A stretch of DNA of 64,000 nucleotides from Burkholderiales bacterium (GTDB taxonomy: Bacteria; Pseudomonadota; Gammaproteobacteria; Burkholderiales; SG8-41): the NCBI GenBank assembly GCA_050741255.1, contig JBOIEQ010000001.1, forward strand, positions 9,473 to 73,472. Direction: 5' to 3'. Under the pieces are notes generated by a model. That model was not told the origin of the DNA. It searched no databases and saw nothing but the letters and a program-made list of their open reading frames with translations. The position numbers and the translations under genes are program-made. This document shows, piece after piece, positions 906-42,227 of this stretch (its first letter is position 1; the number at the start of each line of letters is the position of its first letter).

Positions 906-1444
906 TTGATGTTTTCCTCGATCAGTTTCAGCACCTGCGGCGTCGCGATCAGCGAGCGCCCTTCCACCTGTTCCAGCGACAACCCGCCGAGCGGGTGCGG
1001 GATCTGCACCAGCGGCAGGTCGGGCACGCCAAAGACCTTGGCCTGCGTCCTGCCGAGTTTCATGAACGGATCGGAACAAACGACCGCGGTCACAAGGCCC
1101 CGCTTCCGGAGCTCTGACATGTCGTGGACACTCCACGACGTGCAGGACCCTCAGTCGGCCATTGCGCTGACGACGAAGTCAGCCTCCGCGGCCAGCTGGT
1201 CGAGGATGGGTCCCGGCGCCGGCAGGCTCACGCTGGCCTTGCGCAGCACGACGACCGAGGACACCGGGATCGCCGCCTTCACCGACTCGGCGATGAATTT
1301 CAGCAGGTGGTCGGCATTGCCCTTGCTGTTGTCGAGGATGCCGAGGCGGATGCCGCCCTTCTTGATCTCCCGCTGCGGCTTCAACGCTTCCGCCACGACG
1401 GGCGTCGGGGCTTCGGGGATGACTAGGGTGACTTTCTTGCTCAT
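902..1444 (-). CDS. UGSC-family selenoprotein (in-frame TGA at 1153..1151 read as selenocysteine; 180 aa)
   Basis: ORFs 1151..1444(-) and 902..1120(-) share one frame (1444-1120=324). Only TGA plus 10 sense codons separate them. Read-through gives ...FVVSAMAD-U-GSCTSWSVHD-MSELRKRG.... Strong SD GGAGGAG lies 5-6 nt before ATG 1444, and no SD precedes ATG 1120. A hairpin lies 11 nt 3' of the TGA. Confidence 0.75.
1121..1139 (-). promoter_or_regulatory. SECIS-like hairpin downstream of the UGA codon
   Basis: mRNA sequence GUCGUGGA-GUG-UCCACGAC: 8-bp perfect stem (or 7 bp with loop AGUGU), G/U-containing apical loop. It starts 11 nt after the UGA at 1153..1151, the spacing typical of bacterial SECIS elements. 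Confidence 0.55.
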
Positions 1445-1578
1445 GCGTTACTCCTCCATCATGGTGCGTCCGTGACCGGCGAAAGTGTAGCGCACCGGCA
1501 CTGGCATGGACCACTGTGAAGGGTGCGCGGGAAGTAAACGCGCGGTCCGGTGCCGGTGTGGTGATCGCATTTCGTTTT

Positions 1579-1588
1579 TGGTATACCA
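1579..1588. promoter_or_regulatory. perfect 10-bp palindrome TGGTATACCA, candidate GntR/FadR-type operator
   Basis: Perfect palindrome with a GT-N-AC core, located in the 176-bp divergent region between the UGSC operon and the hydantoinase operon, 33 nt upstream of ATG 1621. A GntR/FCD regulator is encoded in the same operon. Confidence 0.3.
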
Positions 1589-1620
1589 TGGCATTCCATC
1601 GCATTCATCCGGGATTGACC

Positions 1621-4600: not shown

Positions 4601-5397
4601 TCAACCTGCCGGTCGCGATCAACCAGGGCACGCTGGTGCCGGTCAAGGTCACGGCCCAGGCGGGAACCGTACTGAACGCGTCCTTTCCAGCGCCGGTGTT
4701 CGCGCGCACCAGTATCGGCAATTTCGTGCCGGAACTCATTTTCACCGCGCTGGCGTCGGCCCTGCCGGACCGGGTCGTTGCCGGTTCGGGCGCGACGCCG
4801 TTGTGGGCGCAATACCTATTCGGCAAACGCAAGGACGGCAGCCGTTTTGCACCGCTCAACTCGGCCAATGGCGGCCTCGGCGCACGCGCGAACCAGGACG
4901 GCGTGTCCTGCCTGACGTTCCCGGTCAACATCGGGAACACCCCGGTCGAGGTACTCGAAAGCGACATCCCGGTGCTCGTTCGCCAGCGCGCGCTGTGGCC
5001 CGATTCGGCAGGCGCGGGCCGCTTCCGTGGCGGCCTCGGACAGCATTTCGAGATGCAGGTGCTCGAAGACGACCTCGGGCCCGACGGCCCCCTGCTCGTC
5101 GGTTTTCGCGGCGGACGCTTTTATTTCCCGGTGCATGGGCTGCTCGGGGGCGGCGACGGTCCCAACGGCAAACTGACGATCAACGGCAAACCGGCCACCG
5201 GCGGCGGCGACGTATCGGTCCCGCCCGGCGGCACCATCGTGTGCCGCATTCCCGGTGGCGGCGGCCTGGGCTTGCCCGCGGAGCGCCATCCCGATCTCGT
5301 CCGGCGCGATCTCGAATACGGTTACATCACTCTGGAACACGCACAACAGCATTACCCGCATGCACTGGCGGCAGGACGGACCGCGGCCGCGAAGTAG
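1621..5397 (+). CDS. fused hydantoinase/oxoprolinase (HyuA-like N-half plus HyuB-like C-half; 5-oxoprolinase / N-methylhydantoinase family)
   Basis: 1293-aa ORF. The N-terminus MSIAIGCDIGGTFTDF is the hydantoinase-A signature start. The C-half (DPVALEMLWRRLGSTVDELAAALVRTSFSTVVRDVNDYACAIFD...) is hydantoinase B. It parallels the split pair at 27544..31328. Start chosen at the conserved MSIAIG; ATG 1588 is an alternative. Confidence 0.9.
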   Translation: MSIAIGCDIGGTFTDFILIDETSGTVRVDKVLTTPADPSLAIEQGLRNLEEAQPGSIRETAALVHGTTLVINAVIERKGARTGLITTRGFRDVLEIGREKRYDGNDLQIRFPEPLVPRSLRVEIDERIHASGRVLQALDIASVERAVQALTAQGVQSIAICLLHSYANPAHEEQAAGIVARLAPGIPVTLSFEVLRELKEYERSTTTAVNAYAKPIVSRYLKTLEGRLDTLAFKGELLLMQSSGGLNSSQMAQRFPVQIIESGPAAGAISAAHYARLAGHAKILAFDMGGTTAKMCLVKDGRVVKVNQLEVDRVQRFKRGSGIPVRVPVVDLMEIGAGGGSIARVSPKGTLEVGPESASAAPGPACYGLGGTQPTVSDADVVLGYLNPAYFLGGRMALDKTSAQAAIETALAKPLGLSVEAAAWGVHSVVNENMAAAAKVYVAEKGESPSSCAVVAFGGAGPVHASDLARRIGAQVVVIPPRAGVASAFGMLIAPASYDTVRTHRVRLMHADFGAIESQYAQMEQAARAGLPRSVDSAAVWFERSADLRYVGQGYDLTVTLAAERQTETGMRAAFNAAYHLLYGRVFDDLELELMNLRVTAYAPGKHFEETVHAVPAGSAVACTERDAYCAISRRFIPHKVYARASLPKGAALDGPAIVEEAESTTIIDQDASFTVDDFGSVVISLRTRLPVAVTRRKTAKLDPVALEMLWRRLGSTVDELAAALVRTSFSTVVRDVNDYACAIFDRQARLLAQSTDSTPGICGGLGPMLRHMLEVCPPASLREGDVLIGNDPWNGSGHHNDIFTVTPAFHKGKLIGYAACAAHHVDIGGRRATTESRDNYEEGLRIPVSRIMRRGEPNPDVFNFIAANVRLPDTVLGDLRAQLAANHVGCERMRELCAEQGWKDLQLLAGEILQRSEEIARSEISRIPDGVFTHEAPIDIVDGERIVLRVAVTVEGDGLTVDFSGSSPQVRPAINCTLTYTAAYAHFAVGALLNLPVAINQGTLVPVKVTAQAGTVLNASFPAPVFARTSIGNFVPELIFTALASALPDRVVAGSGATPLWAQYLFGKRKDGSRFAPLNSANGGLGARANQDGVSCLTFPVNIGNTPVEVLESDIPVLVRQRALWPDSAGAGRFRGGLGQHFEMQVLEDDLGPDGPLLVGFRGGRFYFPVHGLLGGGDGPNGKLTINGKPATGGGDVSVPPGGTIVCRIPGGGGLGLPAERHPDLVRRDLEYGYITLEHAQQHYPHALAAGRTAAAK

Positions 5398-5428
5398 GAA
5401 TATTCCGTAATTGGCAAAGGAGTTCGTG

Positions 5429-6415
5429 ATGAAGCGTTTCAAACGCAGCACAGTCATCCTTCACGCGGCGTTCACCACGGCCGCCGTCAGTCTGTCCTTC
5501 CCCGTCGCCGCGCAGACCTACCCCACCAAGTCGATCCGCCTCGTCGTGCCGTGGCCCGCGGGCGGCGTGACGGATGTGGTCGCGCGCATCGTCGGCGAGC
5601 GGCTCTCGCAGGGTCTGGGGCAATCCATCATCATCGACAACAAGGCGGGCGCGACCGGCTTCATCGGCACGGAATTCGTCGCCAAGGCCACCCCCGACGG
5701 CTACACGCTCCTGCTCATCACCGCGAGCACGCACGCCATCAGCCCGAACCTGTTCAAGAAGGTGCCCTACGACCCGATCAAGGATTTCGAAACGATCTCC
5801 CAGCTGACGACCGCCCCGACGATACTCGTCACCTACGCCGCGTTCCCCGCAGGCAGTGTTGCGGAACTCGTGAAACTCGCCAAAGCCAAACCCGGCGCGC
5901 TCAATTACGCCTCGTTCGGCAACGGCAGCTCGGCGCATCTCGCCGCCGAACTGTTCAAGCAGGCCACGGGCACCGACTTCGTGCACATCCCCTATAAGGG
6001 CGCCGCGCCGGCCATCGCCGATCTGATGGGGGGGCAGGTCACGATCTTCTTCGATTCCATTCCCTCCGCATTGCCGCATGTACGCTCGGGCAAACTCAAG
6101 GGACTGGCCGTCACCGGGCGCACGCGCACGACCGCGGCGCCCGACATCCCCACCGTGGCCGAAACCTATCCCGGCTTTGAAGTCACCGTATGGCAGGGGT
6201 TTGGCGCGCCCGCCGGCACCCCGCGCGCCGTCATCAACCGGCTCAACGCCGAGTTGGTCAAGGTGATGACGATGCCCGACGTCAGGGAACGCCTGGTGAA
6301 TCTGGGCGCCGATCCGTTGTCCACGACACCCCAGGAATTCGCCGCCCACATCGCACGCGAGAAAGACAAGTGGGCGAGCGTGGTCAAAACTTCCGGCATC
6401 ACGATCAGCGATTGA
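5429..6415 (+). CDS. Bug-family (TctC-like) tripartite tricarboxylate transporter substrate-binding protein
   Basis: Signal peptide followed by AQTYPTKSIRLVVPWPAGGVTD and a later YKG motif. AAGGAG SD lies 6 nt upstream of ATG 5429. Confidence 0.9.
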   Translation: MKRFKRSTVILHAAFTTAAVSLSFPVAAQTYPTKSIRLVVPWPAGGVTDVVARIVGERLSQGLGQSIIIDNKAGATGFIGTEFVAKATPDGYTLLLITASTHAISPNLFKKVPYDPIKDFETISQLTTAPTILVTYAAFPAGSVAELVKLAKAKPGALNYASFGNGSSAHLAAELFKQATGTDFVHIPYKGAAPAIADLMGGQVTIFFDSIPSALPHVRSGKLKGLAVTGRTRTTAAPDIPTVAETYPGFEVTVWQGFGAPAGTPRAVINRLNAELVKVMTMPDVRERLVNLGADPLSTTPQEFAAHIAREKDKWASVVKTSGITISD

Positions 6416-6452
6416 CGTGCGCGATGCAGCCCGTGAGGGGCGGATAGCACGC

Positions 6453-7169
6453 ATGCCCAAGCGCAGCGGCCCGGGCACCGGCAAGGGGGCGAATGTCGGC
6501 GTACGCCGCTTTCCGGAAGCGGAAGCCGGCGAGCCGCGGGGAGAGCATGTCTATGCCGCGCTGCGCGAAGCGATCAGGGTCGGCGAGCTCAAGCCGGGCC
6601 AGCGGCTCGTTGAACGGGAGGTGGCGGCGACGCTCGGGGTGAGCCGCACGCCGGTGCGCCAGGCCTTCAAGCTGCTGGAGGCGCAGGGCATCGCTTCGGT
6701 CGCGGGCGCCCGCGGGCTCGTCATTACCGCGCTGACCCCGGAGGAAGTACGCGAGCTCTACACCATCTGGGAAAGCCTTGAGGGCATCGTCGCACGCTAC
6801 GCCGCGCAGCACGCGACCGACCTCGATCTCAAGGCCCTGCGGCACATCGAGGAGCAATGGAAATCCGCCTCCGGGCCGCAGGTCTACGGCCAGCTCAACA
6901 AGCAGTTCCATGACGCGCTCTATCGCGCCGCGCACAACCGCTATCTCGTGCGCGCCCTCAACGCGATCGACGACGCGCTCGCCCTCCTCGGCGTGACGAC
7001 GTTCTCCATACCGGGGCGCCCCGCCGAGGCCGGTCGCGAGCATGCGGCCATCGTTGCGGCGATCGCACGCCGTGACGGCGCCGCCGCGCAACAGGCGGCC
7101 GAGGCGCACATCCATCGCGCGGGCGAACTCCGCATGACGCTCGTCATGGGACTGGAACTCCGCACGTGA
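6453..7169 (+). CDS. GntR-family transcriptional regulator (FadR/FCD subfamily)
   Basis: wHTH region HVYAALREAIRVGELKPGQRLVEREVAATLGVSRTPVRQAFKLLEAQGI plus a helical C-terminal FCD-like domain. The exact start is uncertain (6417 GTG or 6453 ATG). Confidence 0.85.
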   Translation: MPKRSGPGTGKGANVGVRRFPEAEAGEPRGEHVYAALREAIRVGELKPGQRLVEREVAATLGVSRTPVRQAFKLLEAQGIASVAGARGLVITALTPEEVRELYTIWESLEGIVARYAAQHATDLDLKALRHIEEQWKSASGPQVYGQLNKQFHDALYRAAHNRYLVRALNAIDDALALLGVTTFSIPGRPAEAGREHAAIVAAIARRDGAAAQQAAEAHIHRAGELRMTLVMGLELRT

Positions 7170-8470
7170 ACGCAGCGCCGGCGGCCGAGGCTCATCCAGA
7201 ATCCTATTGGGCCGCAACCGCGGGCCGCACGCGATTCGACCCGCTGACGGGCGACAGCGAAGCAGACGTTGCCGTCATCGGCGGCGGATTTACCGGTCTC
7301 GCCGCCGCTTACGAGCTCAACCGCCTGGGGCGTGACTGCGTCGTGCTTGAGGCGCACGACATCGGCTGGGGCGCGAGCGGACGCAATGGCGGCATGGTCG
7401 TGCCGCGCTACAAGCACACCTATCCCGCGCTCGCCGCCTGCTATGGCGAGGCCGTTGCGCTCGCGATGCATGCCGCGGCACACCGGGCCGTGGACACGGT
7501 GGAAAGCATCGTGGCGGAGTGCGCCATCGACTGCGGGTTCGCCCGTCACGGGCATCTCACGCCTATGGTCCACGCCAGCGACGAGGCGCGCTTCGCGGCG
7601 GATGCCGAATGGCTGGCGCGATATGCGGGCGACGCCGTACCCGCCATGCTGAGCAGGGCTGATACCGCCCGCCGGATCGGCACGGACTTCTATCGTGCCG
7701 CCTACTACGAACCGCGCGGCGCGGGCATCCACCCGTTTGCCTACTGTGCCGGCTTGGCGGTCGCGCTGGCCGCACGCGGCGTGCGCATCCACACGGCAAC
7801 GCCTGCCCTCGAATGGCACTCTGATGGCAACGCGGTAACGGTGAGCACCCCGCGCGGAACTGTCAGGGCGCACCACCTCGTGCTGGCGACCAATGGCTAC
7901 ACCGACCTGACGCAGGCGGGCGCGGCGCTCAAGCTGCGCATCGTGCCCATGGTGTCGTCATTGATTGCCACTGAACCGCTCCCCTCCGCCATTCGGGAAC
8001 GCCTGCTGCCGGCAGGTCACCTGGTCACGGACGCCAAGCGCCTGACCAATTATTTCCGGCTGATGCCTGATGGCGCACTCCTGTTCGGCGGGCGCGGCGG
8101 CGCTTCAAACCGGACGAGTACGGCGGTCTACCGCCGGCTCGCGCACGAGCTTGCGAACATCTTCCCGGCGCTGGCGGGCACGCCGCTCCGCTACCGCTGG
8201 TCGGGCCGTGTGGCCGTGACGCTCGACGGCTTGCCGCACATCGGCGCACTCGGCAAGAGCGTCTCCTACGCCCTCGGTTACAACGGCCGGGGCGTTGCAC
8301 TGTCGGCGCTGCTGGGTCGCATGCTTGCGCACCGCGCGTGCGGAGAACCGGTCGACGCGGGCCCCATGAGCAAAACCGGTTTCGGCGGCATCCCGCTACA
8401 CGCGCTGCGGGTTCCGGCCAAGCAGCTTGCCATTACCTATTACCGTCTGCTCGATGCGATCGGCGCGTGA
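7166..8470 (+). CDS. FAD-dependent oxidoreductase (DAO family, PuuB/sarcosine-oxidase-like)
   Basis: Dinucleotide fold DVAVIGGGFTGLAAAYEL and DIGWGASGRNGGM. Paralogous to 26202..27554. GTGA overlap with the gntR stop. Confidence 0.9.
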   Translation: MNAAPAAEAHPESYWAATAGRTRFDPLTGDSEADVAVIGGGFTGLAAAYELNRLGRDCVVLEAHDIGWGASGRNGGMVVPRYKHTYPALAACYGEAVALAMHAAAHRAVDTVESIVAECAIDCGFARHGHLTPMVHASDEARFAADAEWLARYAGDAVPAMLSRADTARRIGTDFYRAAYYEPRGAGIHPFAYCAGLAVALAARGVRIHTATPALEWHSDGNAVTVSTPRGTVRAHHLVLATNGYTDLTQAGAALKLRIVPMVSSLIATEPLPSAIRERLLPAGHLVTDAKRLTNYFRLMPDGALLFGGRGGASNRTSTAVYRRLAHELANIFPALAGTPLRYRWSGRVAVTLDGLPHIGALGKSVSYALGYNGRGVALSALLGRMLAHRACGEPVDAGPMSKTGFGGIPLHALRVPAKQLAITYYRLLDAIGA

Positions 8471-8514
8471 AATGACCACTTTTTTATCCGCATCGCGATA
8501 GCCTGGGCCGAGCG

Positions 8515-9741
8515 ATGCGTTTGGAATTTTCCGCTTTCCGGAGCCGCAACTACCGGTTGTTCCTCGCCGGCCAGAGTCTGTCGATGATCGGCCACGCGAT
8601 GCAACAGGTCGCGCTCGGCTGGATCGTCTTCAACTGGACCGGGTCGACCTACTGGCTGGGACTCGTCGCGTTCGCGGGCCAGGTGCCTTTCCTCGTCACA
8701 ACCCCACTTGCCGGAGTGCTCACCGATCGCTATGACAAGCGGCGCCTCCTGATGGGGGCGCAGACACTGGGTCTCGTCAGCGCGCTCACGCTGGTCATGC
8801 TCACCTTGTCCGGCAGCGGCAACGCCTGGGCTGTCACGCTGACCGCACTGGCCGCGGGTATCGCCGTCAGCATCGAAGTCCCCACCCGCCAGGCGCTGTT
8901 GGTCGACCTGATCCGGGACAAGGCGCATCTGCCGAACGCCATTGCCTTCTACTCGCTCATGTTCAATACCGGGCGCACGCTGGGACCGCTCGCCGCCGGC
9001 ATGTTGCTTGCCTCCACCGGCGCGTGGACGTGTTTCGCGGCTAATGCGGCCACCTACGCAGCCCTGCTCGCGGCCATGAGCATGATCGAGCGGCCGGCTG
9101 TTGTGCGGCCCGTCCACACGGCGGGTGTCGTGCGCAGCCTCGTGCACGCGTTCACCTATGTGCGCAGGCACGACCTGCTGTGGGCGCTGATCCTGCTCAC
9201 GGGCGTGGCCAGCTTTGCGCTCATGCCCTATGTGGCGCTGATGCCTGCGGTCGCCGGCACCGATTATGCCGCCGCACCGGAGACGCTCGGTTTGCTGCTA
9301 GGGTCGGCTGGTTTTGGTGCCATGCTGGGCAACCTGTCGCTCGCCACGGGTGGCGCCGTCCGCAATCTGCCGCGCAAGATCGCGCTGGCGACCTGCGCCT
9401 CCGGCGTCGCCCTGCTCGTCTTCAGCTTCGTGCCGGCGCTGGGTGCGCGGTTCCTGCTCATGGCCATACTGGGTTGGGGCTATACCGTTGCCATGTCGGC
9501 GTGCAACATCGCGCTGCAAGCCGTCGTACAGGAGGACCAGCGGGGGCGCGTGGCGGCTATTTACATCATGGCCCTGCTGGGCCTGCCCCCCCTCGGCGCA
9601 CTCGGCGCGGGCGTACTCGCGCAACACGTCGGCACGGCACTCACGCTGGCAACAGGCGGCCTTCTCTGCGCGCTGGCAGGCTTGCAACTGCTGTCCGGAA
9701 GCAAACGCTATGTGCGTGCCATCGATGCCGCAGCCGTATGA
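8515..9741 (+). CDS. MFS transporter (EntS/MFS_3-like)
   Basis: 408 aa, about 12 hydrophobic segments, motif GVLTDRYDKRRLL after TM2. Confidence 0.85.
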   Translation: MRLEFSAFRSRNYRLFLAGQSLSMIGHAMQQVALGWIVFNWTGSTYWLGLVAFAGQVPFLVTTPLAGVLTDRYDKRRLLMGAQTLGLVSALTLVMLTLSGSGNAWAVTLTALAAGIAVSIEVPTRQALLVDLIRDKAHLPNAIAFYSLMFNTGRTLGPLAAGMLLASTGAWTCFAANAATYAALLAAMSMIERPAVVRPVHTAGVVRSLVHAFTYVRRHDLLWALILLTGVASFALMPYVALMPAVAGTDYAAAPETLGLLLGSAGFGAMLGNLSLATGGAVRNLPRKIALATCASGVALLVFSFVPALGARFLLMAILGWGYTVAMSACNIALQAVVQEDQRGRVAAIYIMALLGLPPLGALGAGVLAQHVGTALTLATGGLLCALAGLQLLSGSKRYVRAIDAAAV

Positions 9742-9772
9742 GTTCACAGTCCCGTTTCACAGGAGAAAGCGC

Positions 9773-10780
9773 ATGAAACAGTCGTTCACGGTGTCGCCAG
9801 TGCGGACGTTCCGCCTGTCCCTCTCCGCACTGGCCATGCTGGCGGCATCGATGCCGGTCGCGCAGGCACAAGTCCCGGCGGGATGGCCGGCGAAACCCAT
9901 CCGCCTGATCAATCCGTTTGCGCCCGGTGGCGCCGTTGATGTGACTGCGCGCTCGCTCGGCACCGCGCTGGGCGAAGCACTCGGAACGCAGGTCGTCATT
10001 GAAAACCGCGGTGGCGCGGGCGGCATGCTCGGCGTGGACGCGGCGGCGAAGGCCGCGCCGGATGGCTATACCCTCGTTGTCGGCACGGTTGGCCCGATGG
10101 CCATCAGTCCGGCCCTCACCCGCAAGATGCCTTACGACCCCGTCAGGGATCTCGCGCCTATCTCGCGCGCCGCGGACACCATCAACCTGCTGGTCGTGCA
10201 CCCGTCCCTGCCCGTCCAATCGGTGAAGGAGCTGGTGGCGCTCGCCAAGGCACGTCCCAACGAGCTGCTCTACGCATCGGCCGGGGTTGGCGCCAACGAT
10301 CACCTTGCAGGCGAACTGTTCAACGCCCTGGCGGGTACCAAAATCACCCACGTGCCGTACAAGGGCGGCGCGCCCGCGATGCTCGACCTGATCGGCGGCC
10401 AGGTGCAGGTGTATTTCGCCAGCTACGCCACCGCGCGGCCACAGATGGATGCGAAAAAAGTACGGGCGCTCGGATTAACGAGACGACAGCGCTTCGAACT
10501 GCTGCCGGACCTGCCGACGATCGACGAGGCGGGCGTCAAGGGCTTCGAGGTCGCCAACTGGTACGGGATCTTCGCACCCGCGGGCATCCCGAAAGATATC
10601 CTGACACGCCTTAACCGTGAGATCGTCCGTGCACTGGCGCAACCGGACGTCAAGTCGCGGATGCTGCAGGGCGGCGTCGTCGCGGTGTCCTCCACCCCCG
10701 AAGAACTCGGACAGTTCCATCGCATGGAAATGGAGAAATGGGCGAAAGTCATCCGGGACGCCAAGGTCACGCCGGAGTAG
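9773..10780 (+). CDS. Bug-family substrate-binding protein
   Basis: MKQSF...signal...AQVPAGWPAKPIRLINPFAPGGAVD. The track ORF 9314..10780 is an N-terminal over-extension that overlaps the MFS gene. Confidence 0.9.
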   Translation: MKQSFTVSPVRTFRLSLSALAMLAASMPVAQAQVPAGWPAKPIRLINPFAPGGAVDVTARSLGTALGEALGTQVVIENRGGAGGMLGVDAAAKAAPDGYTLVVGTVGPMAISPALTRKMPYDPVRDLAPISRAADTINLLVVHPSLPVQSVKELVALAKARPNELLYASAGVGANDHLAGELFNALAGTKITHVPYKGGAPAMLDLIGGQVQVYFASYATARPQMDAKKVRALGLTRRQRFELLPDLPTIDEAGVKGFEVANWYGIFAPAGIPKDILTRLNREIVRALAQPDVKSRMLQGGVVAVSSTPEELGQFHRMEMEKWAKVIRDAKVTPE

Positions 10781-10808
10781 TCGTCCGGGCGAGCGGATAT
10801 TCCGCGCG

Positions 10809-11003
10809 CTACAAAGAGAGCTGCAGTTCGGCGTATTCGAGCGCCTCGGCCTCGTTGTCGAACACCAGGCTCCACGCCTTGCCCACGAACTCGGCGGGCG
10901 ACTTGCTGATGTCGAGCCGCACCGCGGCGGCCATGTAGATGTCTTCGTCGTCCTCCGCGTCCTCGATCTTCAGCGCGACCGCCTTGAATTTGCCTGCTGC
11001 CAT
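10809..11003 (-). CDS. small acidic hypothetical protein (64 aa)
   Basis: AAGGAG SD 5 nt upstream of the ATG and GC3-rich codons. No family recognised. Confidence 0.55.
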   Translation of the reverse strand: MAAGKFKAVALKIEDAEDDEDIYMAAAVRLDISKSPAEFVGKAWSLVFDNEAEALEYAELQLSL

Positions 11004-11289
11004 GCCTGCTCCTTGTTGTTGTCATCCCCGATACCCGGGACAGCCCATCCCTGTGCCAGCGCCGTCCTCCGCCAATACCGTTTGGCGGGCGAAAGCCTAG
11101 CATGATCACGACAGCCGGCCTCAGACCGATGCCAGAACGAGGCTCTGCCCTGCGGGAAGTCCAGCGGGACTTGCGGGCTGGCGGTCGCGGCGTGGAATCT
11201 TGCGGCGCCTTCGGAAAATTCCGGGACCGCTTGAACCGCAAGGCAGCAACAGCGATAAGCTGGCGACCATGATGAACCGGGAGTTTACG

Positions 11290-11637
11290 ATGAAGCCGGT
11301 ACTCGGCCTGGCCGTGCTGTTGCTGGCGGCATGCGCGACCCCCTCCGACATCACCAAGCTCGGGATGTCGCGGTCCTTCACAACCACGATGAACGTGCCG
11401 AATACCGTTACCTGCGTAAAGCGGGTCGCGAGCGACTTTCGCGCGAAGGGGCCTGCGACAGAGCGGCCGTCCGACAAGCCGGGCGGCGTCGAGATTCATC
11501 TCAACGGCGACATGGGAACGATCATGGTTGCCGTCGTCACTCCGGCTCCGCCCGGTTCGAACGTCACGGTGTTCTATGAGAGCGACCGGGTACGAAGCCT
11601 CAACGGCAACGACATGGTTCGCGGATGCTCGAAGTAA
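11290..11637 (+). CDS. hypothetical lipoprotein
   Basis: MKPVLGLAVLLLAAC has a lipobox (LLAAC). GGGAG SD lies 7 nt upstream. No family recognised. Confidence 0.6.
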   Translation: MKPVLGLAVLLLAACATPSDITKLGMSRSFTTTMNVPNTVTCVKRVASDFRAKGPATERPSDKPGGVEIHLNGDMGTIMVAVVTPAPPGSNVTVFYESDRVRSLNGNDMVRGCSK

Positions 11638-11897
11638 GCTCACCCCGCCACCTCGATTGCACGGGAGGCCATTGGGCCCTGTCCGCAGGAGCCAAAGCTT
11701 GAGCAAGCCGGGTGGCCTGTGGGCAGATCCGGATCCCAGGCCTTCCGCGTGCCGTGTGTTTCGGAGGGCCAATGGGCCTGGCCCACGAGCACCCTACCCC
11801 TATGCCCAGTCGCACCGCATTGGTGCGTGCCATCCATGTATTGCCGCTTTGCGGCTGACGGAATAAAGTTCGTGGTCGTCGCTGATGGGTACCGCTT

Positions 11898-12188
11898 ATG
11901 TCTTCGTCATGGATTGATCTCGCGCGGGGCTGCGAGTTCGTCAACGCCGCGCTGGCCGACGAACTGCACAAAGCCGGCGTAAAAGTCAGAGAAATCGCAT
12001 TCTCCGAGCCCTACACCATTCAATCGACCAGTACGCAGACCCTTAACGCCACGTTGGCCAGCGGCGAAGTTCGCGGCATCGAGTTCAGCACGCGCGAACT
12101 GATACTGGCTGGAAGCACGGCGGAGAACGCGGGTGTCGAAGTGCTCGTCCGCATTCGCGAGTTTGTAGCGAGCCTCGTCCGGCAATAG
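11898..12188 (+). CDS. hypothetical protein (96 aa), weakly supported
   Basis: Protein-like composition, but no SD and noticeably more A/T-ending codons than the neighbours. Confidence 0.3.
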   Translation: MSSSWIDLARGCEFVNAALADELHKAGVKVREIAFSEPYTIQSTSTQTLNATLASGEVRGIEFSTRELILAGSTAENAGVEVLVRIREFVASLVRQ

Positions 12189-12282
12189 GGATCGTTCGGC
12201 GGTGCTGTTTCGCGTCCTCACGGGGATAGTGCCCGGCTCGCCTCGGGGGTGGTGTCCCGGTGGAGATGTGAACTCCGGTTAG

Positions 12283-12306
12283 CGCCCTTTCACGGCGGTA
12301 ACCGGG
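12283..12306 (+). other. tRNA-Glu(UUC) anticodon-arm fragment (24/24 nt identical to the gene at 16277..16352, opposite orientation)
   Basis: CGCCCTTTCACGGCGGTAACCGGG matches the tRNA-Glu anticodon stem-loop, variable loop and first T-stem bases. It forms a hairpin at 12275..12305 with loop CUUUCAC. Confidence 0.7.
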
Positions 12307-12408
12307 CAGCGGTGGCGCGGGAATTGTCGCGCCCGCGCCCCTGTTGTGGAAACCACTGGGCGCCTTACCAACAAGCTTACTCACCACCCCGTTGCACAAG
12401 GACCACTC

Positions 12409-14250
12409 ATGCCACGCACGACCAGACGAATGCTGTTGAAACAGGCTGCCGCCATCAGCCTGCTCCCCTTCGTCCCGTTGCCTCTGACGGGAGTGGCTCA
12501 TGGCGCAGCCAACGCGGCGGGCAGCGCGTTTCGTCGCAGCCGTCCCGGCGATCGGACCTGGCCGTCGGCTGCTGAGTGGGATCGTTTAAACCAGGCGGTC
12601 GGCGGTCAGCTTTCCCGGGTGGAATCTCCCCTCATGACGTGCGCCACAGCGCCCGGCGGGACCGCTTGCAACGAGCTGTTCCGGAACATGAAGAACCCGT
12701 ACTTCATCGGCGACAGCCCGGCGCTCACGCAAACGGTGGGCTGGGTGGACGGCTGGAGTTCCGCACCGAGCGTCTATGCGCTCGCCGCCAGGACAACCGC
12801 GGACGTGGTCGCCGCCGTCAACTTTGCGCGGGAGCACCGCCTGCGGCTGGTCATCAAAGGCGGCGGGCACAGCTATCAGGGCACGTCCAACGGGCCGGAC
12901 TCGCTGCTGGTTTGGACGCGGCCGATGAACGCCATCACCCTCCACGACGCCTTCATCGGAGCAGGCTGCGCGGGCAAGGTGCCACCGCAACCCGCGGTGT
13001 CCGTCGGCGCGGGCGCCATCTGGCTCAACACTTACCACGCGGTCACGAGTGCCGGCCGCTACGTGCAGGGCGGCGGCTGCGCGACGGTCGGCGTCGCCGG
13101 GCTTGTCCAGAGCGGCGGTTTCGGCAGCTTCTCCAAGTACTACGGCATGGCGGCCGCAGGCCTGCTGGAGGCCGAGATCGTCACCGCCGATGGCGTCGCG
13201 CGCATCGTCAACGCCTGCATGCATCCGGATCTCTACCGGGGACTCAAGGGGGGCGGCGGGGGCAGCCTCGGCGTCGTCACGCGCCTCACCCTCCGCACGC
13301 GCGAGCTGCCGGCGTTTCTCGGTGGCGCACAGGCGTCCATCAAGGCCGCCTCAGATGCCGCATACCGCCGCCTGATCGCCCGTTTCGTCGTGTTCTATGC
13401 CGACAGTCTCCTCAATCCGCGATGGGGTGAGATGGCCAAATTCCGGCCGGGTAACGTGCTTGAGATCGCAATGGTGTTCCACGGCCTGAGCCAACCGGAA
13501 GCGGCCGCCATCTGGCGTCCGTTCTTCGAGTGGATCGCGGCCTCGCCGCAGGATTACAGCCTGGCGTCGCCGCTACAGGTGATCGCCGTGCCCGCCCGCA
13601 ACTTCTGGGATCCGGAATACCTGCGCCGGAACCTGCCGCAGACGGTGGTCGCCGACAGCCGGCCGGGCGCCCCGGCCCACAACCTGTTCTGGGCCGGCAA
13701 CCTTGGCGAGGCGGGGCAGTATCTGCACGGCTACGACTCGACGTGGCTGCCGGTTTCTCTGCTGAAGAAAGACCAGCAGAAGCGGCTGGTAGACGCCCTT
13801 TTCGCGAGCTCGCGCCACTGGCAGACAAGCCTGCACTTCAACAAAGGCATGGCCGGCGCGCCTGCCGAAGCCGTTGCCTCGGCCCGGCAGACGGTGACCC
13901 ATCCGGCCGTGGCGGATGCATTTGCGCTGGCGATCTGTGCGGGCGGCGGACCGCCCGCCTTCGCGTCGGTACCCGGTCACGAACCGGACTTGGCCAGGGC
14001 GCGCGCGGATGCAAAATTGATTGGCCTTGCGATGCGCGAACTGGTCAAGGTGGCACCGAACGGCGGCTCGTACGTGTCCGAAGGCAACTACTTCAACCGC
14101 AACTGGCAGCAGGCATACTGGGGTTCCAACTACCAGCGGCTGCTGGCGGTGAAACGGAAATATGATCCGGACGGGCTGTTCTTCGTCCATCACGGTGTCG
14201 GCAGCGAGGACTGGAGCGCCGACGGCTTTACCAGGATTGCCGGTCGCTGA
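12409..14250 (+). CDS. Tat-secreted FAD-binding oxidoreductase with C-terminal berberine-bridge (BBE) domain
   Basis: Twin-arginine signal MPRTTRRMLLKQAAAISLL...AHGAANA. FAD_binding_4-like region RLVIKGGGHSYQG. BBE-type C-terminus YWGSNYQRLLAVKRKYDPDGLFFVHHGVGSE. AAGGA SD before the ATG. Confidence 0.85.
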   Translation: MPRTTRRMLLKQAAAISLLPFVPLPLTGVAHGAANAAGSAFRRSRPGDRTWPSAAEWDRLNQAVGGQLSRVESPLMTCATAPGGTACNELFRNMKNPYFIGDSPALTQTVGWVDGWSSAPSVYALAARTTADVVAAVNFAREHRLRLVIKGGGHSYQGTSNGPDSLLVWTRPMNAITLHDAFIGAGCAGKVPPQPAVSVGAGAIWLNTYHAVTSAGRYVQGGGCATVGVAGLVQSGGFGSFSKYYGMAAAGLLEAEIVTADGVARIVNACMHPDLYRGLKGGGGGSLGVVTRLTLRTRELPAFLGGAQASIKAASDAAYRRLIARFVVFYADSLLNPRWGEMAKFRPGNVLEIAMVFHGLSQPEAAAIWRPFFEWIAASPQDYSLASPLQVIAVPARNFWDPEYLRRNLPQTVVADSRPGAPAHNLFWAGNLGEAGQYLHGYDSTWLPVSLLKKDQQKRLVDALFASSRHWQTSLHFNKGMAGAPAEAVASARQTVTHPAVADAFALAICAGGGPPAFASVPGHEPDLARARADAKLIGLAMRELVKVAPNGGSYVSEGNYFNRNWQQAYWGSNYQRLLAVKRKYDPDGLFFVHHGVGSEDWSADGFTRIAGR

Positions 14251-14289
14251 CACGAAGCGGTGTTCTCTCACATGGAAAGATCTGCCTCA

Positions 14290-15525
14290 ATGACTGACAT
14301 CTACAAGACCACGCAGGAGGGCTATCTCGAATTCAGCCCCGGCTTCTTTCAGCAGTGCATGCGCGATTACCTGGAGGACCCCGGCATCGTTGTGACGGCG
14401 GTGCGCTACGTTGGTGAAGTCGGGGTCACCGCCACCACGCGCATGAAATACACCGGTGAACGCGACAAGCTGCTGGGGCTATTCCGCTATGGGATCGACT
14501 ACACCCAGGGCGGGCGGCCGCGGAGCATCGAAATCCTCGTCAAATCAAAAACCCACTATCTTGAGCTCGTGCAGCGCCTCGGCGACGTGCTGATCAAAAG
14601 TGGCATCCAGGTGCCGGGGGTTGCCGGTCTGCTCGGCAAGACCGAACTGTTCAACACCCACATAAAAGAGATCAACGTCTTCCGCATGCAGAAAACGGAC
14701 CCGGCCTTCACGCGGGTGCTGCCCATCGTCTACGGGACGTACGCCAACGATGCGGTGCAGCAGTACGTAGTGCTGGAGGAGTTTCTTGCCAACGCCTACG
14801 TCATGAAGGACTACCGCGACATTTCCTTCTGGAGCCCTGCGCAGATCGAAACCGGCGTGCGCGATTTTTCCCGGATGCACGCAGCGCACTTCGGGAAGTA
14901 CGAGACACTGGTCGGGGAAGGCTGGCTCGGCAAAACGCTGGATGCCGGCGTGATGCGCGAACTCACGCCACTCTGGAGTGCCTATGCCGAAAAGCTCCGC
15001 CATTACATCGGCACGCTGTTCGATGCGGAGTACCTGGACACGCATCGTCAATGGATCGACACCATTCCCCAATGGTGGGGCGCGATCGACGCCCAGAAAA
15101 AGACCCTGATCTTCAACGACGCGCAAATCCGCAACCTGGCCGTCCGCGACCCGTACCGCGATCCGCGGCTCGTCCTGTTCGACTGGGAGTGCGCGAGCAT
15201 CCAGTTGCCGCAGCGCGATCTGGTCGAATTTCTGAGCTACGCGATCGGCGAAGGCACGACCGATGCCGAAATTGCCGGATATCTTGAAGCGGCGCGGCAC
15301 CAGCTCGCCGAAAGCGCGCAGGTGACCATCGATCCGCGGGAATGGCTGACCGGCTGCCGTTATTCGATCCGAGATCTTCACGTCAACCGCATGGCCTGCC
15401 AACTGGTGCTGCACATCACGCTCAACCGACCCGACATCGAGCGGGTGTTTCGCGCGTCTCTACGCATACTGGCTTGTGTGGAGCGCAGCTTGACGGCTTT
15501 GGGCGTCGCGCTCGAGCAACACTAG
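14290..15525 (+). CDS. atypical protein-kinase-fold phosphotransferase (APH/CHK/EcKL-like)
   Basis: Kinase-fold landmarks: EILVKSK (beta3 Lys), VVLEEF hinge, catalytic loop LIFNDAQIRNLAV (D..N spacing as in HGDxxxxN, but His replaced by Phe), metal-binding LVLFDWECAS, then PQRDLVEFL. Start at 14272 or 14290. Confidence 0.7.
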   Translation: MTDIYKTTQEGYLEFSPGFFQQCMRDYLEDPGIVVTAVRYVGEVGVTATTRMKYTGERDKLLGLFRYGIDYTQGGRPRSIEILVKSKTHYLELVQRLGDVLIKSGIQVPGVAGLLGKTELFNTHIKEINVFRMQKTDPAFTRVLPIVYGTYANDAVQQYVVLEEFLANAYVMKDYRDISFWSPAQIETGVRDFSRMHAAHFGKYETLVGEGWLGKTLDAGVMRELTPLWSAYAEKLRHYIGTLFDAEYLDTHRQWIDTIPQWWGAIDAQKKTLIFNDAQIRNLAVRDPYRDPRLVLFDWECASIQLPQRDLVEFLSYAIGEGTTDAEIAGYLEAARHQLAESAQVTIDPREWLTGCRYSIRDLHVNRMACQLVLHITLNRPDIERVFRASLRILACVERSLTALGVALEQH

Positions 15526-15557
15526 CGTTACTATCACCGTAGATAGAAAGTGCCCCC

Positions 15558-16043
15558 TTAACCGCGGCGCGCCGTCTCGATTGCAGCGATGTCGATCTTT
15601 CTCATCTCCATCATCGCATCGAACGCGCGTTTGGCTGCAACGGGGTCGGGATCGGTAATCGCGTCCGTCAGGGCAATCGGCGTAATCTGCCAGGACAAAC
15701 CCCATTTGTCCTTGCACCAGCCGCATGCGCTCTCCTGGCCGCCGTTGCCGACAATCGCGTTCCAGTAGCGATCCGTTTCGGCTTGGTCAGCGGTGGCTAC
15801 CTGGAACGAAAACGATTCGCTGTGCTTGAACGCCGGTCCGCCGTTGAGTCCGAGGCAAGGAATACCCATCACGGTAAATTCGACGGTCAGCACGTCCCCC
15901 TTTTTCCCCGACGGAAAGTCTCCCGGCGCGTGGTACACCGCGCCGACGGACGAATCGGGAAAGGTCCTGGCGTAAAACCGCGCCGCGTCCTCGGCGTCGC
16001 CATCGTACCAAAGACAAATCGTGTTCTTCGCCGATTTCAGCAT
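15558..16043 (-). CDS. VOC-family protein (PhnB / 3-demethylubiquinone-9 3-methyltransferase-domain type)
   Basis: ICLWYDGDAEDAARFYARTFPDS...GWCKDKWGLSWQI is typical of this family. Confidence 0.85.
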   Translation of the reverse strand: MLKSAKNTICLWYDGDAEDAARFYARTFPDSSVGAVYHAPGDFPSGKKGDVLTVEFTVMGIPCLGLNGGPAFKHSESFSFQVATADQAETDRYWNAIVGNGGQESACGWCKDKWGLSWQITPIALTDAITDPDPVAAKRAFDAMMEMRKIDIAAIETARRG

Positions 16044-16168
16044 GCCACTTCTCCATTGAGATGAGAGTCCTACTGCACGGGGATTGTGCCCCGCTCGCCC
16101 TGGGGTGATCCGGGCATCCCTCGTCCACTACGTGGCGAGGGACCGCCGCGCACCAGCGGCGCGGCGTC

Positions 16169-16197
16169 CAAAGCAATGTCCCCCGGACATTGCTTTG
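16169..16197. repeat. perfect 13-bp inverted repeat CAAAGCAATGTCC-CCC-GGACATTGCTTTG within a cluster of hairpins
   Basis: Read directly. Flanking hairpins at 16144..16166 (8 bp) and 16200..16216 (7 bp). About 126 nt upstream of the VOC gene start. Confidence 0.6.
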
Positions 16198-16234
16198 TAG
16201 AACCCCTGCGGGGTTCGCATCCCCGGGGAGCGTC

Positions 16235-16275
16235 AAAAAGCAAAAAGCCACCGCTTGGGTGGCTTTTTGCTTTTT
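16235..16275 (-). terminator. rho-independent (bidirectional-looking) terminator after the tRNA-Ala/tRNA-Glu operon
   Basis: AGCCACC-GCTTG-GGTGGCT stem (extendable with A-U pairs), flanked by an A-run and a T-run, immediately 3' of tRNA-Glu. Confidence 0.6.
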
Positions 16276-16276
16276 G

Positions 16277-16352
16277 TGGCGTCCCCACGGGGATTCGAAC
16301 CCCGGTTACCGCCGTGAAAGGGCGATGTCCTAGGCCTCTAGACGATAGGGAC
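16277..16352 (-). tRNA. tRNA-Glu (anticodon UUC)
   Basis: GTCCCTATCGTCTAGAGGCCTAGGACATCGCCCTTTCACGGCGGTAACCGGGGTTCGAATCCCCGTGGGGACGCCA. Cloverleaf, loop CUUUCAC, encoded CCA. Confidence 0.95.
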
Positions 16353-16411
16353 TTAAATCGGCCGACGTACTGACTAGCGAGACTTACAAAACTGCAATCC
16401 TGCGAAATCCG

Positions 16412-16487
<76 letters not shown>

Positions 16488-16499
16488 ACGAGGGCGCGA

Positions 16500-16528
16500 A
16501 TTATAACGAGCGCTTGCCAATTCGTAAA
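16500..16528 (-). promoter_or_regulatory. sigma70-type promoter of the tRNA-Ala/Glu operon
   Basis: Minus strand: TTTACG-N17-TATAAT, with the -10 ending 12 nt before the tRNA-Ala 5' end. AT-rich UP-like tract upstream. Confidence 0.45.
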
Positions 16529-16610
16529 GACTAAATAAATCCGTAGCTTAGGAACGCTCCGCAAATGCGCCGCTCCGGCGCAAGCCGGCATGCAGTAGCT
16601 TGAATTCAAT

Positions 16611-16634
16611 GGATTCCGGCTTCCGCCGGAATGA
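16611..16634. repeat. REP-type hairpin (ATTCCGGC-TTCC-GCCGGAAT, the widespread GGAATGACG / VIPAEAGI type)
   Basis: 8-bp stem. Three GAATTC(C) motifs lie nearby (about 16603, 16636, 16656). Located downstream of the DUF3617 gene. Confidence 0.5.
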
Positions 16635-16661
16635 CGAATTCCTGGATCGTGCGGAGAATTC

Positions 16662-17072
16662 CTAGCCTGCCTTGCACGCGCCCAGGCGCTTGCCCACTGT
16701 TTGCGAGCGCATCTCCATTTTCTGGCCTTTCATCGTCATCTCCGCCTCCATCGTGGTGGCGGTCTGCTTCACGGTGCCGGTGCCCTGCATGCCGGAGGAC
16801 GGGCAGCTCATCTCCCAGGAGTAGGTATCGCCCGATTTCTTGTTGGAGGTCATCTTGCAGTCGCTCTGCTTCTTGGCGTCGTTCATGTAGCGACTGGGGT
16901 CGCCCGCGTCTTCCTTCTTGATGCAGCGGGTGTTGGTCATGACCTGCGACTTGGGCATGTTGGGCGCGGACATCGTGGTGGTGAACTGCCACTCGCCGGG
17001 GTCCATGGCGCATACGACGGCGGGAACGGCGGCCAGCAGGGCCGCGGCAACAGCGATCAACGGTCGGAACAT
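16662..17072 (-). CDS. DUF3617-like secreted protein
   Basis: Signal peptide MFRPLIAVAAALLAAVPAVVCA, then PGEWQFTTTM... with paired Cys. GAGGAG SD 8 nt upstream of the ATG. Confidence 0.75.
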   Translation of the reverse strand: MFRPLIAVAAALLAAVPAVVCAMDPGEWQFTTTMSAPNMPKSQVMTNTRCIKKEDAGDPSRYMNDAKKQSDCKMTSNKKSGDTYSWEMSCPSSGMQGTGTVKQTATTMEAEMTMKGQKMEMRSQTVGKRLGACKAG

Positions 17073-17086
17073 GGGCAACTCTCCTC

Positions 17087-18496
17087 TCAGGTAAGGCCGG
17101 TGTGGCGGGACAGGCGTGCGAGCGTGCGTTCGCGCCCGAGCAATGCGAGTACGGCGGACAAATCAGGGGTCTGCGTGCGGCCGAATACGGCTACCCGCAG
17201 CGGGATCGCCAGCGCCGGCATCTTGATCTTGTGCAGCGCGAGGACTTCCTTGATGGCCGCGCCGAGCGGGGCCGCTGTCCACTCCGGCAGTGCCTCGAAT
17301 TTCGCGCCGAGTTCACGCAACACGGGGCGCGAGGCGTCGGTCACGTGCTCCACCAGCAATTCCGGCGCGGGTTCGGCGTCACCGTAGAACAGCATCGCTT
17401 CCGCCGCGAGCGTCTCCAGCGTGTCGCAGCGGGCTTTGAACAGGCCCACCACGGCCTCCAGCGGCGGACCTTCATCAAGCTTGCCGCCCAGCCGTTCGAG
17501 GCGCGGCAGCACCTCGGCGGCGAGCCGGTCGTCCATTGCGATCTTCATGTACTCCTGATTGAGCCAGGCCAGCTTCTCCGGATCGAAGCGCGCCGCCGCG
17601 TGACTCACGTGTTCGAGATCGAACCAGGACAGGAACTGCTCGCGCGAGAAGATCTCGGCGTCTCCGTGCGACCAGCCGAGCCGCGCGAAGTAGTTCAGCA
17701 CCGCCTCCGGCAGGTAGCCGCGGTCGCGGTATTCCAGCACGCCGACTGCGCCGTGGCGCTTGGACAAACGTTCGCCGTCGGTGCCGAGGATCATCGGCAC
17801 GTGCGCGAACAGGGGCGGCGTGGCGCCCAGCGCATGGTAAATGTTGATCTGGCGCGGCGTATTGTTGACGTGGTCGTCGCCGCGTATGCAGTGCGTGATG
17901 TGCATGTCGATGTCGTCGACCACCACGCCGAAGTTGTAGGTGGGCACCCCGTCACCGCGCAGGATGACCAGGTCGTCGAGTTCCGCGTTCGCGAACTCGA
18001 TCGGCCCTTTCACCAGGTCGCGCCAGGCGACGATGCCCTCGTTCGGGTTCCGGAAGCGCACCACCGGCTGCACGTCCGCGGGCGGTGTCTTGCCACGCGC
18101 GTTTTCGGGACGCCAGCGTCCGTCGTAGCGCGGCTTCTCGCCGCGCGCGCGCTGCTGCTCGCGCAGCGCCTCCAGCTCTTCCTTCGACGCATAGCAGTGG
18201 TAGGCCTTGCCTTCCTTCAGCAGCTGGGCCGCGGCTTCCTGATAGCGCGGCAGGCGCTGCATCTGGCGCGGCGGCGGCACCACGTCCCATTCGAGTTCGA
18301 GCCAGCGCATGCTTTCGTAGATCTTGTCCACCGCGGCCTCGGTCGAGCGCTCGACGTCGGTGTCCTCGATGCGCAGGATGAAGGCGCCGTCGTGCCGGCG
18401 CGCGTAGGCCCAGCAGAACAGCGCCGTGCGCGCGCCGCCGATGTGCAGGTAGCCGGTCGGGCTGGGGGCGAAACGGGTGATGACTTTGGCGGTCAT
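17087..18496 (-). CDS. gltX: glutamate--tRNA ligase
   Basis: [20 protein letters not shown] (HIGH motif) and the KMSKS-equivalent LSKRHG. 469 aa. Confidence 0.95.
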
Positions 18497-41450: not shown

Positions 41451-42227
41451 ATGCTTTCCGTCATCCCCGTTCCCGCCTTCACCGACAACTACATCTGGGT
41501 CATCCACGACGGCAAGCAGGCGGCCGTCGTCGATCCCGGCGAAGCACGCCCGGCACTCGAGTTTCTCGCGCGTGAAAAACTCAAGCTCTCGGCCGTCCTG
41601 CTCACGCATCACCACCCCGACCACATCGGCGGGCTGGCGGAACTGCTGGCGCACGCGCCGTCCGCGGCGCCGGTATCCGTGTTCGCACCGCACGACGAGC
41701 GCATCGCCCAGGTCACGCACCGGATGCGCGAGGGCGAGCGGGCGACGCTGCCTGCGCTCGGCGTCACGCTGGAGGTGCTGGAGGTTCCCGCCCACACCCG
41801 CACGCACATCGCCTTTCACGGCGCGGGCATGCTGTTTTGCGGCGACACCCTGTTCGCGTGCGGCTGCGGGCGGCTGTTCGAAGGCACGCCCGCGCAGATG
41901 CATGCGGCCCTGACCAAACTCGCGGCCCTGCCGGGCGACACCCGGGTCTACTGCGGGCACGAATACACGCTGGCGAACATCACGTTCGCACGGGCGGCGG
42001 AACCGGACAACCAGGACCTCCCGGCGCTGGAGGCGCGCTGCAAGGCTCTGCGCGCCAAGAACCAGCCGACCCTGCCGTCCACCATCGCCCAGGAACGGGC
42101 CATGAACCCCTTTGTGCGGGTGACCGCGCCCGGCGTCGTGGCCTCGGCCAGCCGCCAGTCTGGCCGGCCGCTGACCGATCCGGTGGCCGTACTTGGGGCC
42201 ATCCGCGAATGGAAAAACAACTTCTGA
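41451..42227 (+). CDS. gloB: hydroxyacylglutathione hydrolase (glyoxalase II)
   Basis: FTDNYIWVIHD...LLTHHHPDHIGG...TRTHIAF...CGHEYT. Confidence 0.9.
   Translation: MLSVIPVPAFTDNYIWVIHDGKQAAVVDPGEARPALEFLAREKLKLSAVLLTHHHPDHIGGLAELLAHAPSAAPVSVFAPHDERIAQVTHRMREGERATLPALGVTLEVLEVPAHTRTHIAFHGAGMLFCGDTLFACGCGRLFEGTPAQMHAALTKLAALPGDTRVYCGHEYTLANITFARAAEPDNQDLPALEARCKALRAKNQPTLPSTIAQERAMNPFVRVTAPGVVASASRQSGRPLTDPVAVLGAIREWKNNF

Follow-up and report, generated by a model that had tools for sequence, protein, structure and literature searches.

A 24-nt copy of tRNA-Glu upstream of an oxidase gene is a probable scar of recombination at the tRNA anticodon loop

We analysed a 64,000-nucleotide stretch of a Burkholderiales genome (this genome is called G000 and the whole stretch is called the window) and found that a 24-nt segment upstream of an exported oxidase gene, identical to part of the tRNA-Glu gene, is most probably a non-functional scar of recombination targeted to the anticodon loop by repeatedly inserting integrative elements. 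At least five tRNA-Glu-derived fragments lie downstream of the single tRNA-Glu gene, and the region that holds them is variable. The scar is part of the tRNA-Glu locus and is older than the split between G000 and G001, the only other species of the genus that was compared; both are fragmented metagenome-type assemblies. The genes between the scar and the tRNA-Glu gene are referred to as the islet.

Results

An exact tRNA-Glu core joined to a decayed arm

The tRNA-Glu(UUC) gene lies on the minus strand at 16277-16352, and it is both the source and the target of the fragments described here. It was called by ARAGORN and matched the Rfam family RF00005 at 56 bits. The initial annotation had raised the question of whether other tRNA-Glu genes exist; the results showed that this one is the sole tRNA-Glu gene in the 4.47-Mb assembly, in which ARAGORN called 44 tRNA genes. 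The 24-mer (CGCCCTTTCACGGCGGTAACCGGG, 12283-12306, plus strand) was identical at 24/24 positions to linear positions 29-52 of this tRNA, as first described, and it recurred in none of the dinucleotide-preserving shuffles (0/100). It contains the anticodon stem, the loop CTTTCAC, the 3' stem, the variable loop and the first four T-stem bases, and it is inverted relative to the gene. At its left edge, identity begins at tRNA position 29, at the anticodon stem. With up to two mismatches allowed, the assembly holds two copies, one at 12283-12306 and one within the tRNA-Glu gene. The 24-mer is also the longest exact tRNA-derived fragment outside the tRNA genes; for the other tRNAs among the 44 genes, none longer than 18 nt was found. 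A search of the genome itself and 60 relatives with the 220-nt leader returned only tRNA-Glu genes and a few fragments.

Two further observations were made during these searches. The ARAGORN calls on the whole G000 genome included a tRNA-SeC, consistent with the selenoprotein gene at the left end of the window, and one odd 'tRNA-Asp(atc)'. Elsewhere in the window, positions 41806-41823 (plus strand, ACATCGCC-TTTCACGGCG) matched tRNA-Glu positions 25-43 at 18/19 with one gap (E=0.74 in the window), which is probably a chance match.

The flanks of the 24-mer had been described as unlike the rest of the tRNA, and this description did not hold. Positions 12250-12286 matched the reverse complement of tRNA positions 76->40 at 28/37 without gaps, and blastn within the 64-kb window aligned 12250-12297 (minus strand) with tRNA positions 29-76 at 34/48 (E=3.6e-4). 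The local alignment score was 21, above the maximum of 12 obtained from 300 shuffles. We named this segment fragment b' (12250-12286, minus strand); it is a degenerate tRNA-Glu 3' half covering positions 40-76 with the CCA end, in direct orientation with the gene. Two other interpretations were rejected. Reading the 5' flank as a decayed tRNA 5' half gave 12/28 by hand count, versus 28/37 for the reverse-complement 3' half, and a minus-strand pseudo-tRNA (loop GTGAAAG, corresponding to anticodon GAA) has neither an acceptor 5' strand nor a D arm and was called by neither ARAGORN nor Rfam.

Fragment b' forms the long left arm of a head-to-head unit. Positions 12275-12305 are an imperfect palindrome, seen in the sequence and in the fold, with 12-bp arms, one G-G mismatch and a 7-nt spacer that is the anticodon loop. 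In the resulting 12-bp hairpin, two 3'-half arms are joined head to head at the anticodon loop. One arm is the long, decayed 3' half in reverse complement, and the other is a short forward piece that is exact (positions 40-52); the 24-mer consists of the loop, the short arm and 4 nt of the shared stem. Because the two arms are inverted repeats, RNA or single-stranded DNA of this segment would fold into the 12-bp hairpin as a by-product.

The two arms differ in their degree of decay. Compared with tRNA-Glu, the part of the 24-mer outside the shared stem carries 0/20 changes, and the adjoining arm carries 9/37. Under the assumption that both are of the same age, this difference has P ~0.004 (our calculation from tool counts), which indicates that the core is either younger or has stayed identical through gene conversion or some constraint. 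If only the divergence after the G000/G001 split is taken into account (~10% per lineage), the exactness of the 24-mer has P ~0.1 (our calculation). The exact core is younger than the decayed arm, and constraint is not required.

Further tRNA-Glu fragments near the scar and the gene

Next to fragment b' lies fragment a' (12206-12248, minus strand), a degenerate tRNA-Glu 3' end (about positions 49-76) together with the first native downstream bases. Within it, ATCCCCGTGAGGACGCGAAACA matched the tRNA end plus the downstream sequence of the G001 type at 20/22 and outscored all 300 of 300 shuffles. Fragment d' (16063-16105, minus strand) is a degenerate T-arm/acceptor-like segment and a direct repeat of 12206-12248, with 26/30 identities between 12219-12248 and 16076-16105. 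This repeat, shared by fragments a' and d', jointly flanks the scar and the three-gene block. When fragment d' was compared with the tRNA directly, the match was weak (p about 0.02). Fragment d' opens the segment that is conserved with G001, and it is followed by a GC-rich hairpin cluster (16106-16208) that is likewise conserved with G001. The cluster was considered as a dispersed REP-like repeat and rejected as such, as it is present in a single copy in G000. One perfect hairpin at 16169-16197 reads AAAGCAATGTCC/GGACATTGCTTT in the window and AACCCGATGT/ACATCGGGTT in G001, with three base pairs changed on both sides, indicating that this stem has been maintained.

Fragment e (16209-16235, plus strand) is an inverted copy of tRNA-Glu positions 49-76 with the T-loop TTCGCAT, and it faces the gene across the terminator. 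It matched the tRNA at 18/20 in blastn, with an alignment score of 23.5 against a null maximum of 13. The terminator is a bidirectional intrinsic-terminator hairpin (16236-16276), recognised from its sequence and common to the tRNA-Glu gene and fragment e. Its loop is the centre of a 99-nt imperfect palindrome (window 16209-16304, 83% identity). At the outer border of the variable region, at window position about 1464, no tRNA-like fragment was found.

The scar in a second species of the genus

We then compared the locus with that of G001, whose GluRS is 90-92% identical to that of G000. The G001 order is tRNA-Glu, terminator, ~190 nt resembling window 16076-16270, 44 nt, a 43-nt unit and toxin-antitoxin genes, and the same type of arrangement was found on single contigs in three metagenome contigs (L134, L136, L137). 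In blastn, window 16076-16329 was 80% identical to G001 over 255 nt, a span that includes the cluster, fragment e, the terminator and part of the tRNA. The 43-nt unit is the homologue of window 12260-12302 (84%) and lies 240 nt from tRNA-Glu. The search for other copies that had been proposed at the outset thus produced this homologue in G001, but no further copy of the 24-mer in G000.

In G001 and the three metagenome contigs, 44 nt stand in place of the ~3.77-kb three-gene block of G000, and the oxidase, kinase-fold and PhnB-like genes are absent at the G001 locus. This difference reflects either a gain in G000 or a loss in G001. The presence of a homologous scar in G001 without the oxidase indicates that the scar travels with the tRNA-Glu locus and not with the oxidase gene. 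On contig L137, the segment 7978-13488 was compared with window 1-16276; it has sequence 90% identical to window 1-1463, and the scar follows after only 3.5 kb of toxin-antitoxin genes. Since homology to window 1-1463 resumes only 3.5 kb past the scar, the whole of 1464-16276 is variable between the two species. A hydantoinase/Bug/GntR/DAO/MFS module (1464-12200) also lies inside this variable region downstream of tRNA-Glu. On the other side, gltX was located at 17087-18496, 5 kb from the 24-mer as originally stated, and the order gltX-tRNA-Ala-tRNA-Glu is kept in 10/10 of the relatives compared from across the order; downstream of tRNA-Glu, the gene content differs among them.

Genes of the islet

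The oxidase gene (12409-14250, plus strand) encodes a Tat-signal protein of the FAD/BBE type (Pfam PF01565 and PF08031). Its start, an AAGGA Shine-Dalgarno motif followed by ATG at 12409, was correctly placed by the initial annotation, and the Tat motif TRRMLLK and the FAD/BBE domains agree with its description as a Tat oxidase. The closest oxidase relatives are 53-63% identical and occur in Acidobacteriota, Chthoniobacterales, Dyella/Frateuria and Bradyrhizobium; no close relative was found in its own family or order. These distant best matches in other groups suggest, as far as sequence comparison goes, that the oxidase was horizontally acquired. The APH/kinase-fold gene (14260-15525, plus strand, PF01636) has a lower G+C content (about 60%) and was never adjacent to oxidase orthologues elsewhere. 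The third gene (15558-16043, minus strand, PF06983) is PhnB-like and belongs to the 3-demethylubiquinone-9 3-methyltransferase family (VOC fold); its orthologues are patchy in relatives and do not lie beside tRNA-Glu there. Over 14000-16500 the G+C content is about 60%, compared with about 66% in the surroundings. Just to the left of the scar lies a 96-aa ORF (11898-12188) that may not be a gene: it lacks a Pfam match, and six-frame searching of 40 relatives gave no homologue.

Recurrence of the unit and att-type fragments

Among 159 family and 401 order genomes, the head-to-head junction pattern was found only in G000, G001 and G155, with a different form in G451. The metagenome scan returned the three G001-type contigs and one independent unit on a soil contig (L135). 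The unit therefore occurs with the same build and loop orientation in four contexts: G000, G001, G155 and L135. The G155 unit has a 10-bp stem and the loop CTCTCAC and lies beside an addiction module; on its contig (L132, G155:C246) it occupies 4240-4330, between an outer-membrane protein gene and an HI1420-type antidote gene. The L135 unit, at about 100-190 on the minus strand, has a perfect 14-bp stem and a left arm that is exact for 25 nt. No tRNA-Glu gene was visible near either of these two units. The derived bases of fragment b' are common to the G001 and G155 copies, and the decayed arms of all three genomes share non-tRNA bases, e.g. GATG for GATT. The shared bases suggest that the arms come from one source and did not decay independently from host copies, and the recurrence of the loop orientation in four contexts hints at a systematic cause. 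No recombinase gene was found near the head-to-head unit in any context, and blastn searches of plasmid and phage collections and a viral-contig scan returned nothing for the palindrome.

Fragments of an att type were also detected. In five family genomes (G009, G076, G026, G030 and G016) we found tRNA-Glu 3' halves (CACCGCC-CTTTCAC-GGCGG...CCA) with no 5' half, all of which begin at tRNA position 28; no integrase was found near them on the same contigs. Three viral contigs (L138, L140 and L141) carry tRNA-Glu 3' halves starting at the same base, position 28, and in 2/3 of these contigs a PF00589 tyrosine integrase lies 0.1-1.1 kb from the fragment. In L141 the 3' half is at 12212-12270 and the integrase gene at 12384-13448; in L138 they are at 2823-2880 and 3951-5093. 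These two pairs are probable attP-int modules targeting tRNA-Glu. The left edge of the 24-mer falls within one base of this att edge (position 29 vs 28).

Origin of the scar

In the explanation that we prefer, integrative elements with tyrosine integrases and a crossover in the anticodon loop would have inserted at tRNA-Glu more than once. Every insertion would have restored the tRNA and shifted the older 3' half outward. The displaced 3' halves would be fragments a' and b' (12206-12286, minus strand), which are in direct orientation with the gene, and the 24-mer would be the core of the inner displaced 3' half, made up of the short arm, the 7-nt loop and 4 nt of stem. The short arm would represent an inverted repeat of the tRNA 3' anticodon-stem/variable region, and the 7-nt loop is the presumed crossover spacer. 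Repeated insertion is consistent with fragments a' and b' lying in tandem and in direct orientation. The initial annotation had offered two readings, one of which saw the segment as left behind by tRNA-targeted integration or inversion and as delimiting the islet; this reading gained support from the direct 3'-half repeat, the att-type edge and the 44 nt in G001 that face the 3.77-kb block. No PF00589 integrase was found in the islet ORFs or anywhere on the contig (C1), so mobility is deduced from the scars only, and the region is a remnant and not a mobile island. The G000 genome as a whole contains four tyrosine recombinases.

The inverted orientation of the 24-mer relative to the gene is not predicted by simple integration. 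Its loop CTTTCAC is read on the strand opposite to that of the tRNA, whereas a canonical attR would carry it on the tRNA's strand, and the short arm is a 12-bp mirror of the tRNA 3' stem and variable region. The loop could have been reversed if the 7-nt spacer flipped between the 12-14-bp inverted arms, if recombination was antiparallel, or if replication folded back or switched template. In all three cases, the 24-mer would still be a relic.

A replication error without any integrase is an unlikely alternative origin. Fold-back or template switching at the terminator and anticodon-stem hairpins would have produced a direct-inverted-direct triplication that was later broken up by deletions and insertions, and the 24-mer would be part of the inverted middle copy, still a functionless relic. 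The order on the tRNA strand agrees with such an event, as it runs from the gene (direct) through fragment e' (inverted, 76->49) and the 24-mer (inverted, 52->29) to b' (direct, 40->76). Both junctions lie at hairpins, namely the 99-nt terminator-centred palindrome and the anticodon palindrome, and fragment e and the 24-mer, which share only 4 nt (CGGG), would jointly complete an inverted 3' half. The inverted triplications of ODIRA also have junctions at short inverted repeats and later lose a palindrome arm (PMC4689423). However, the third copy does not continue into a terminator copy, and the hairpin cluster and the direct fragment d' interrupt the supposed middle copy in both species. Moreover, the integrase-borne fragments have their att edge where the 24-mer has its left edge, and in G155 and L135 the unit occurs with no tRNA-Glu gene visible nearby.

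We also considered whether the unit is a site still in use. It is improbable that the head-to-head unit is a stereotyped, possibly still usable site of an unrecognised class of cargo-swapping elements downstream of tRNA-Glu, although such a site would explain the ~43 nt conserved between changing flanks, the exact core beside a decayed arm and the recurrence in four contexts. We give very little credence to the proposal that the palindromic unit is an active or recently active lox-like site at which a trans-acting recombinase exchanges cassettes downstream of tRNA-Glu. Inverted arms of 12-14 bp around a 7-nt asymmetric spacer would suit such a site, as would the fact that only about 43 nt are common to G000 and G001 with different genes on both flanks, and the build and spacer orientation repeat in four contexts, two of them beside addiction modules. 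Against it, no context has a recombinase gene near the unit, the arms are degraded in G001, the 24-mer occurs only twice in the genome with one copy being the tRNA gene itself, and the plasmid and phage collections gave no match.

The hairpin in the oxidase leader

The initial annotation had placed the 24-mer in a structured 5' leader. The 12-bp hairpin at 12275-12305, with its one G-G mismatch and CUUUCAC loop, and a second hairpin (12314-12339, plus strand) with an 8-bp GC stem (12314-12321/12332-12339) are indeed present in the sequence, and both appear in the minimum-free-energy fold. As a whole, however, the 231-nt leader folded no better than shuffles (z = -1.11). By our inspection of the G001 spacer sequence, the second GC hairpin is not kept as a hairpin there. 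The Rfam 15 covariance models gave nothing at 12190-12408 even at E<=1, and over 10000-18000 the two tRNA genes alone passed. Positions 11800-12500 contained no consensus of a sigma-70-type promoter or of a terminator.

We next assessed whether the 12-bp stem is maintained. In G001 the stem has two C-A pairs and two outer mismatches, with 3-4 pairs broken, and it has a C-G pair at the site of the G-G mismatch in G000. The annotation had held that neutral decay in relatives without covariation would favour the relic reading; the results showed a decayed G001 stem and no compensating double change between the G000 and G001 stems. Over the four homologues (G000, G001, G155 and L135), 87.5% of cells were paired, compared with 82.8% in shuffles, and 62/500 shuffles reached 87.5%. 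Between G000 and G001, the decayed arm has diverged (6/27) just as much as the non-coding DNA beside it (about 20%). In the upstream regions of 56 oxidase orthologues, the 24-mer was not found, and the best match reached 17/24. The hairpin probably has no role in oxidase expression.

The other reading of the initial annotation was a cis-acting anticodon-arm mimic that might titrate a tRNA-Glu-binding factor; it gained no support. That the hairpin was co-opted as such a mimic in the oxidase leader, where it would bind GluRS or a tRNA-Glu-modifying enzyme or otherwise sense tRNA-Glu status, is hardly credible: the loop and 3' side are exactly those of tRNA-Glu, the 12-bp stem is stable and presents the CUUUCAC loop, the core has zero changes beside an arm 24% diverged, and gltX is 5 kb away, but G001 has the unit without the oxidase gene and with an uncompensated, degraded stem, the element is missing upstream of the oxidase orthologues, the oxidase is unconnected with glutamyl-tRNA metabolism, the hairpin is not preceded by a recognisable sigma-70-type promoter, and neither the whole-leader fold nor the Rfam families lend it support.

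Discussion

In this study, the 24-mer is best explained as a relic of events at the tRNA-Glu gene. Even an exact tRNA fragment that forms a good hairpin can arise purely from the symmetry of an att site, and the tempting story of a tRNA-Glu mimic regulating an exported oxidase near gltX is without support and was removed. Downstream of tRNA-Glu lies a recombination hot spot that contains the oxidase/kinase-fold/PhnB-like block, a location that helps in reading the three genes as acquired cargo. The sole mildly unusual point is the head-to-head build with its reversed loop, seen in four contexts; if the unit were a true functional site, it would represent a new att architecture.

Tyrosine-recombinase core sites, such as loxP, FRT, dif and att cores, consist of two 11-14-bp inverted arms around an asymmetric 6-8-bp spacer. 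As DNA, the palindrome at 12275-12305 has such a build. It differs in being a candidate site near which no recombinase gene was found, and its arms carry one mismatch in G000 and several in G001.

The thrS operator and other tRNA-mimicking leaders present an anticodon-arm-like hairpin upstream of a start codon, and an anticodon-arm-like hairpin is likewise found 5' of the oxidase start codon. In contrast to those leaders, the downstream gene here encodes an exported oxidase and no tRNA-related enzyme, no covariation was found in the element, which is not maintained alongside that gene, and its identity with the tRNA reflects literal copying of DNA and not convergent mimicry.

Tandem inversion duplications and inverted triplications have been described in bacteria and yeast. 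In ODIRA, inverted triplications have their junctions at short inverted repeats, and one arm of the palindrome is later lost (PMC4689423). The locus resembles these rearrangements in its direct-inverted-direct order, its junctions at hairpin-forming inverted repeats and the truncation of one palindrome arm. However, the copies here measure tens of bases and not kilobases, other material is interposed, and the third copy lacks the original downstream sequence.

The closest comparison is with genomic islands of the Islander type, in which a regenerated tDNA and its displaced fragment mark the island ends and attP sites centred on the anticodon are the commonest class (PMC4383910); the anticodon-loop 'A' sublocation is that of Williams 2002, as cited in PMC4383910. 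As in such islands, an intact tRNA-Glu gene lies at one end and a degenerate direct 3' half lies 4 kb away, the fragment edge is at the anticodon stem as in the integrase-bearing viral contigs, foreign cargo lies between the ends, the fragments are in tandem as in island arrays, and a relative has a near-empty site (the G001 type, with 44 nt vs about 3.77 kb). The locus differs from them in that no integrase remains in the islet or on the contig, the exact 24-mer is inverted with its loop opposite to the canonical attR, the left arm mirrors the right one over 12 bp in a head-to-head unit, and the scar is kept in a sister species with almost nothing between it and the tRNA. These comparisons indicate that the 24-mer unit largely qualifies as a decayed tDNA-fragment island scar, a well-known kind of element of which the head-to-head build is a minor variant.
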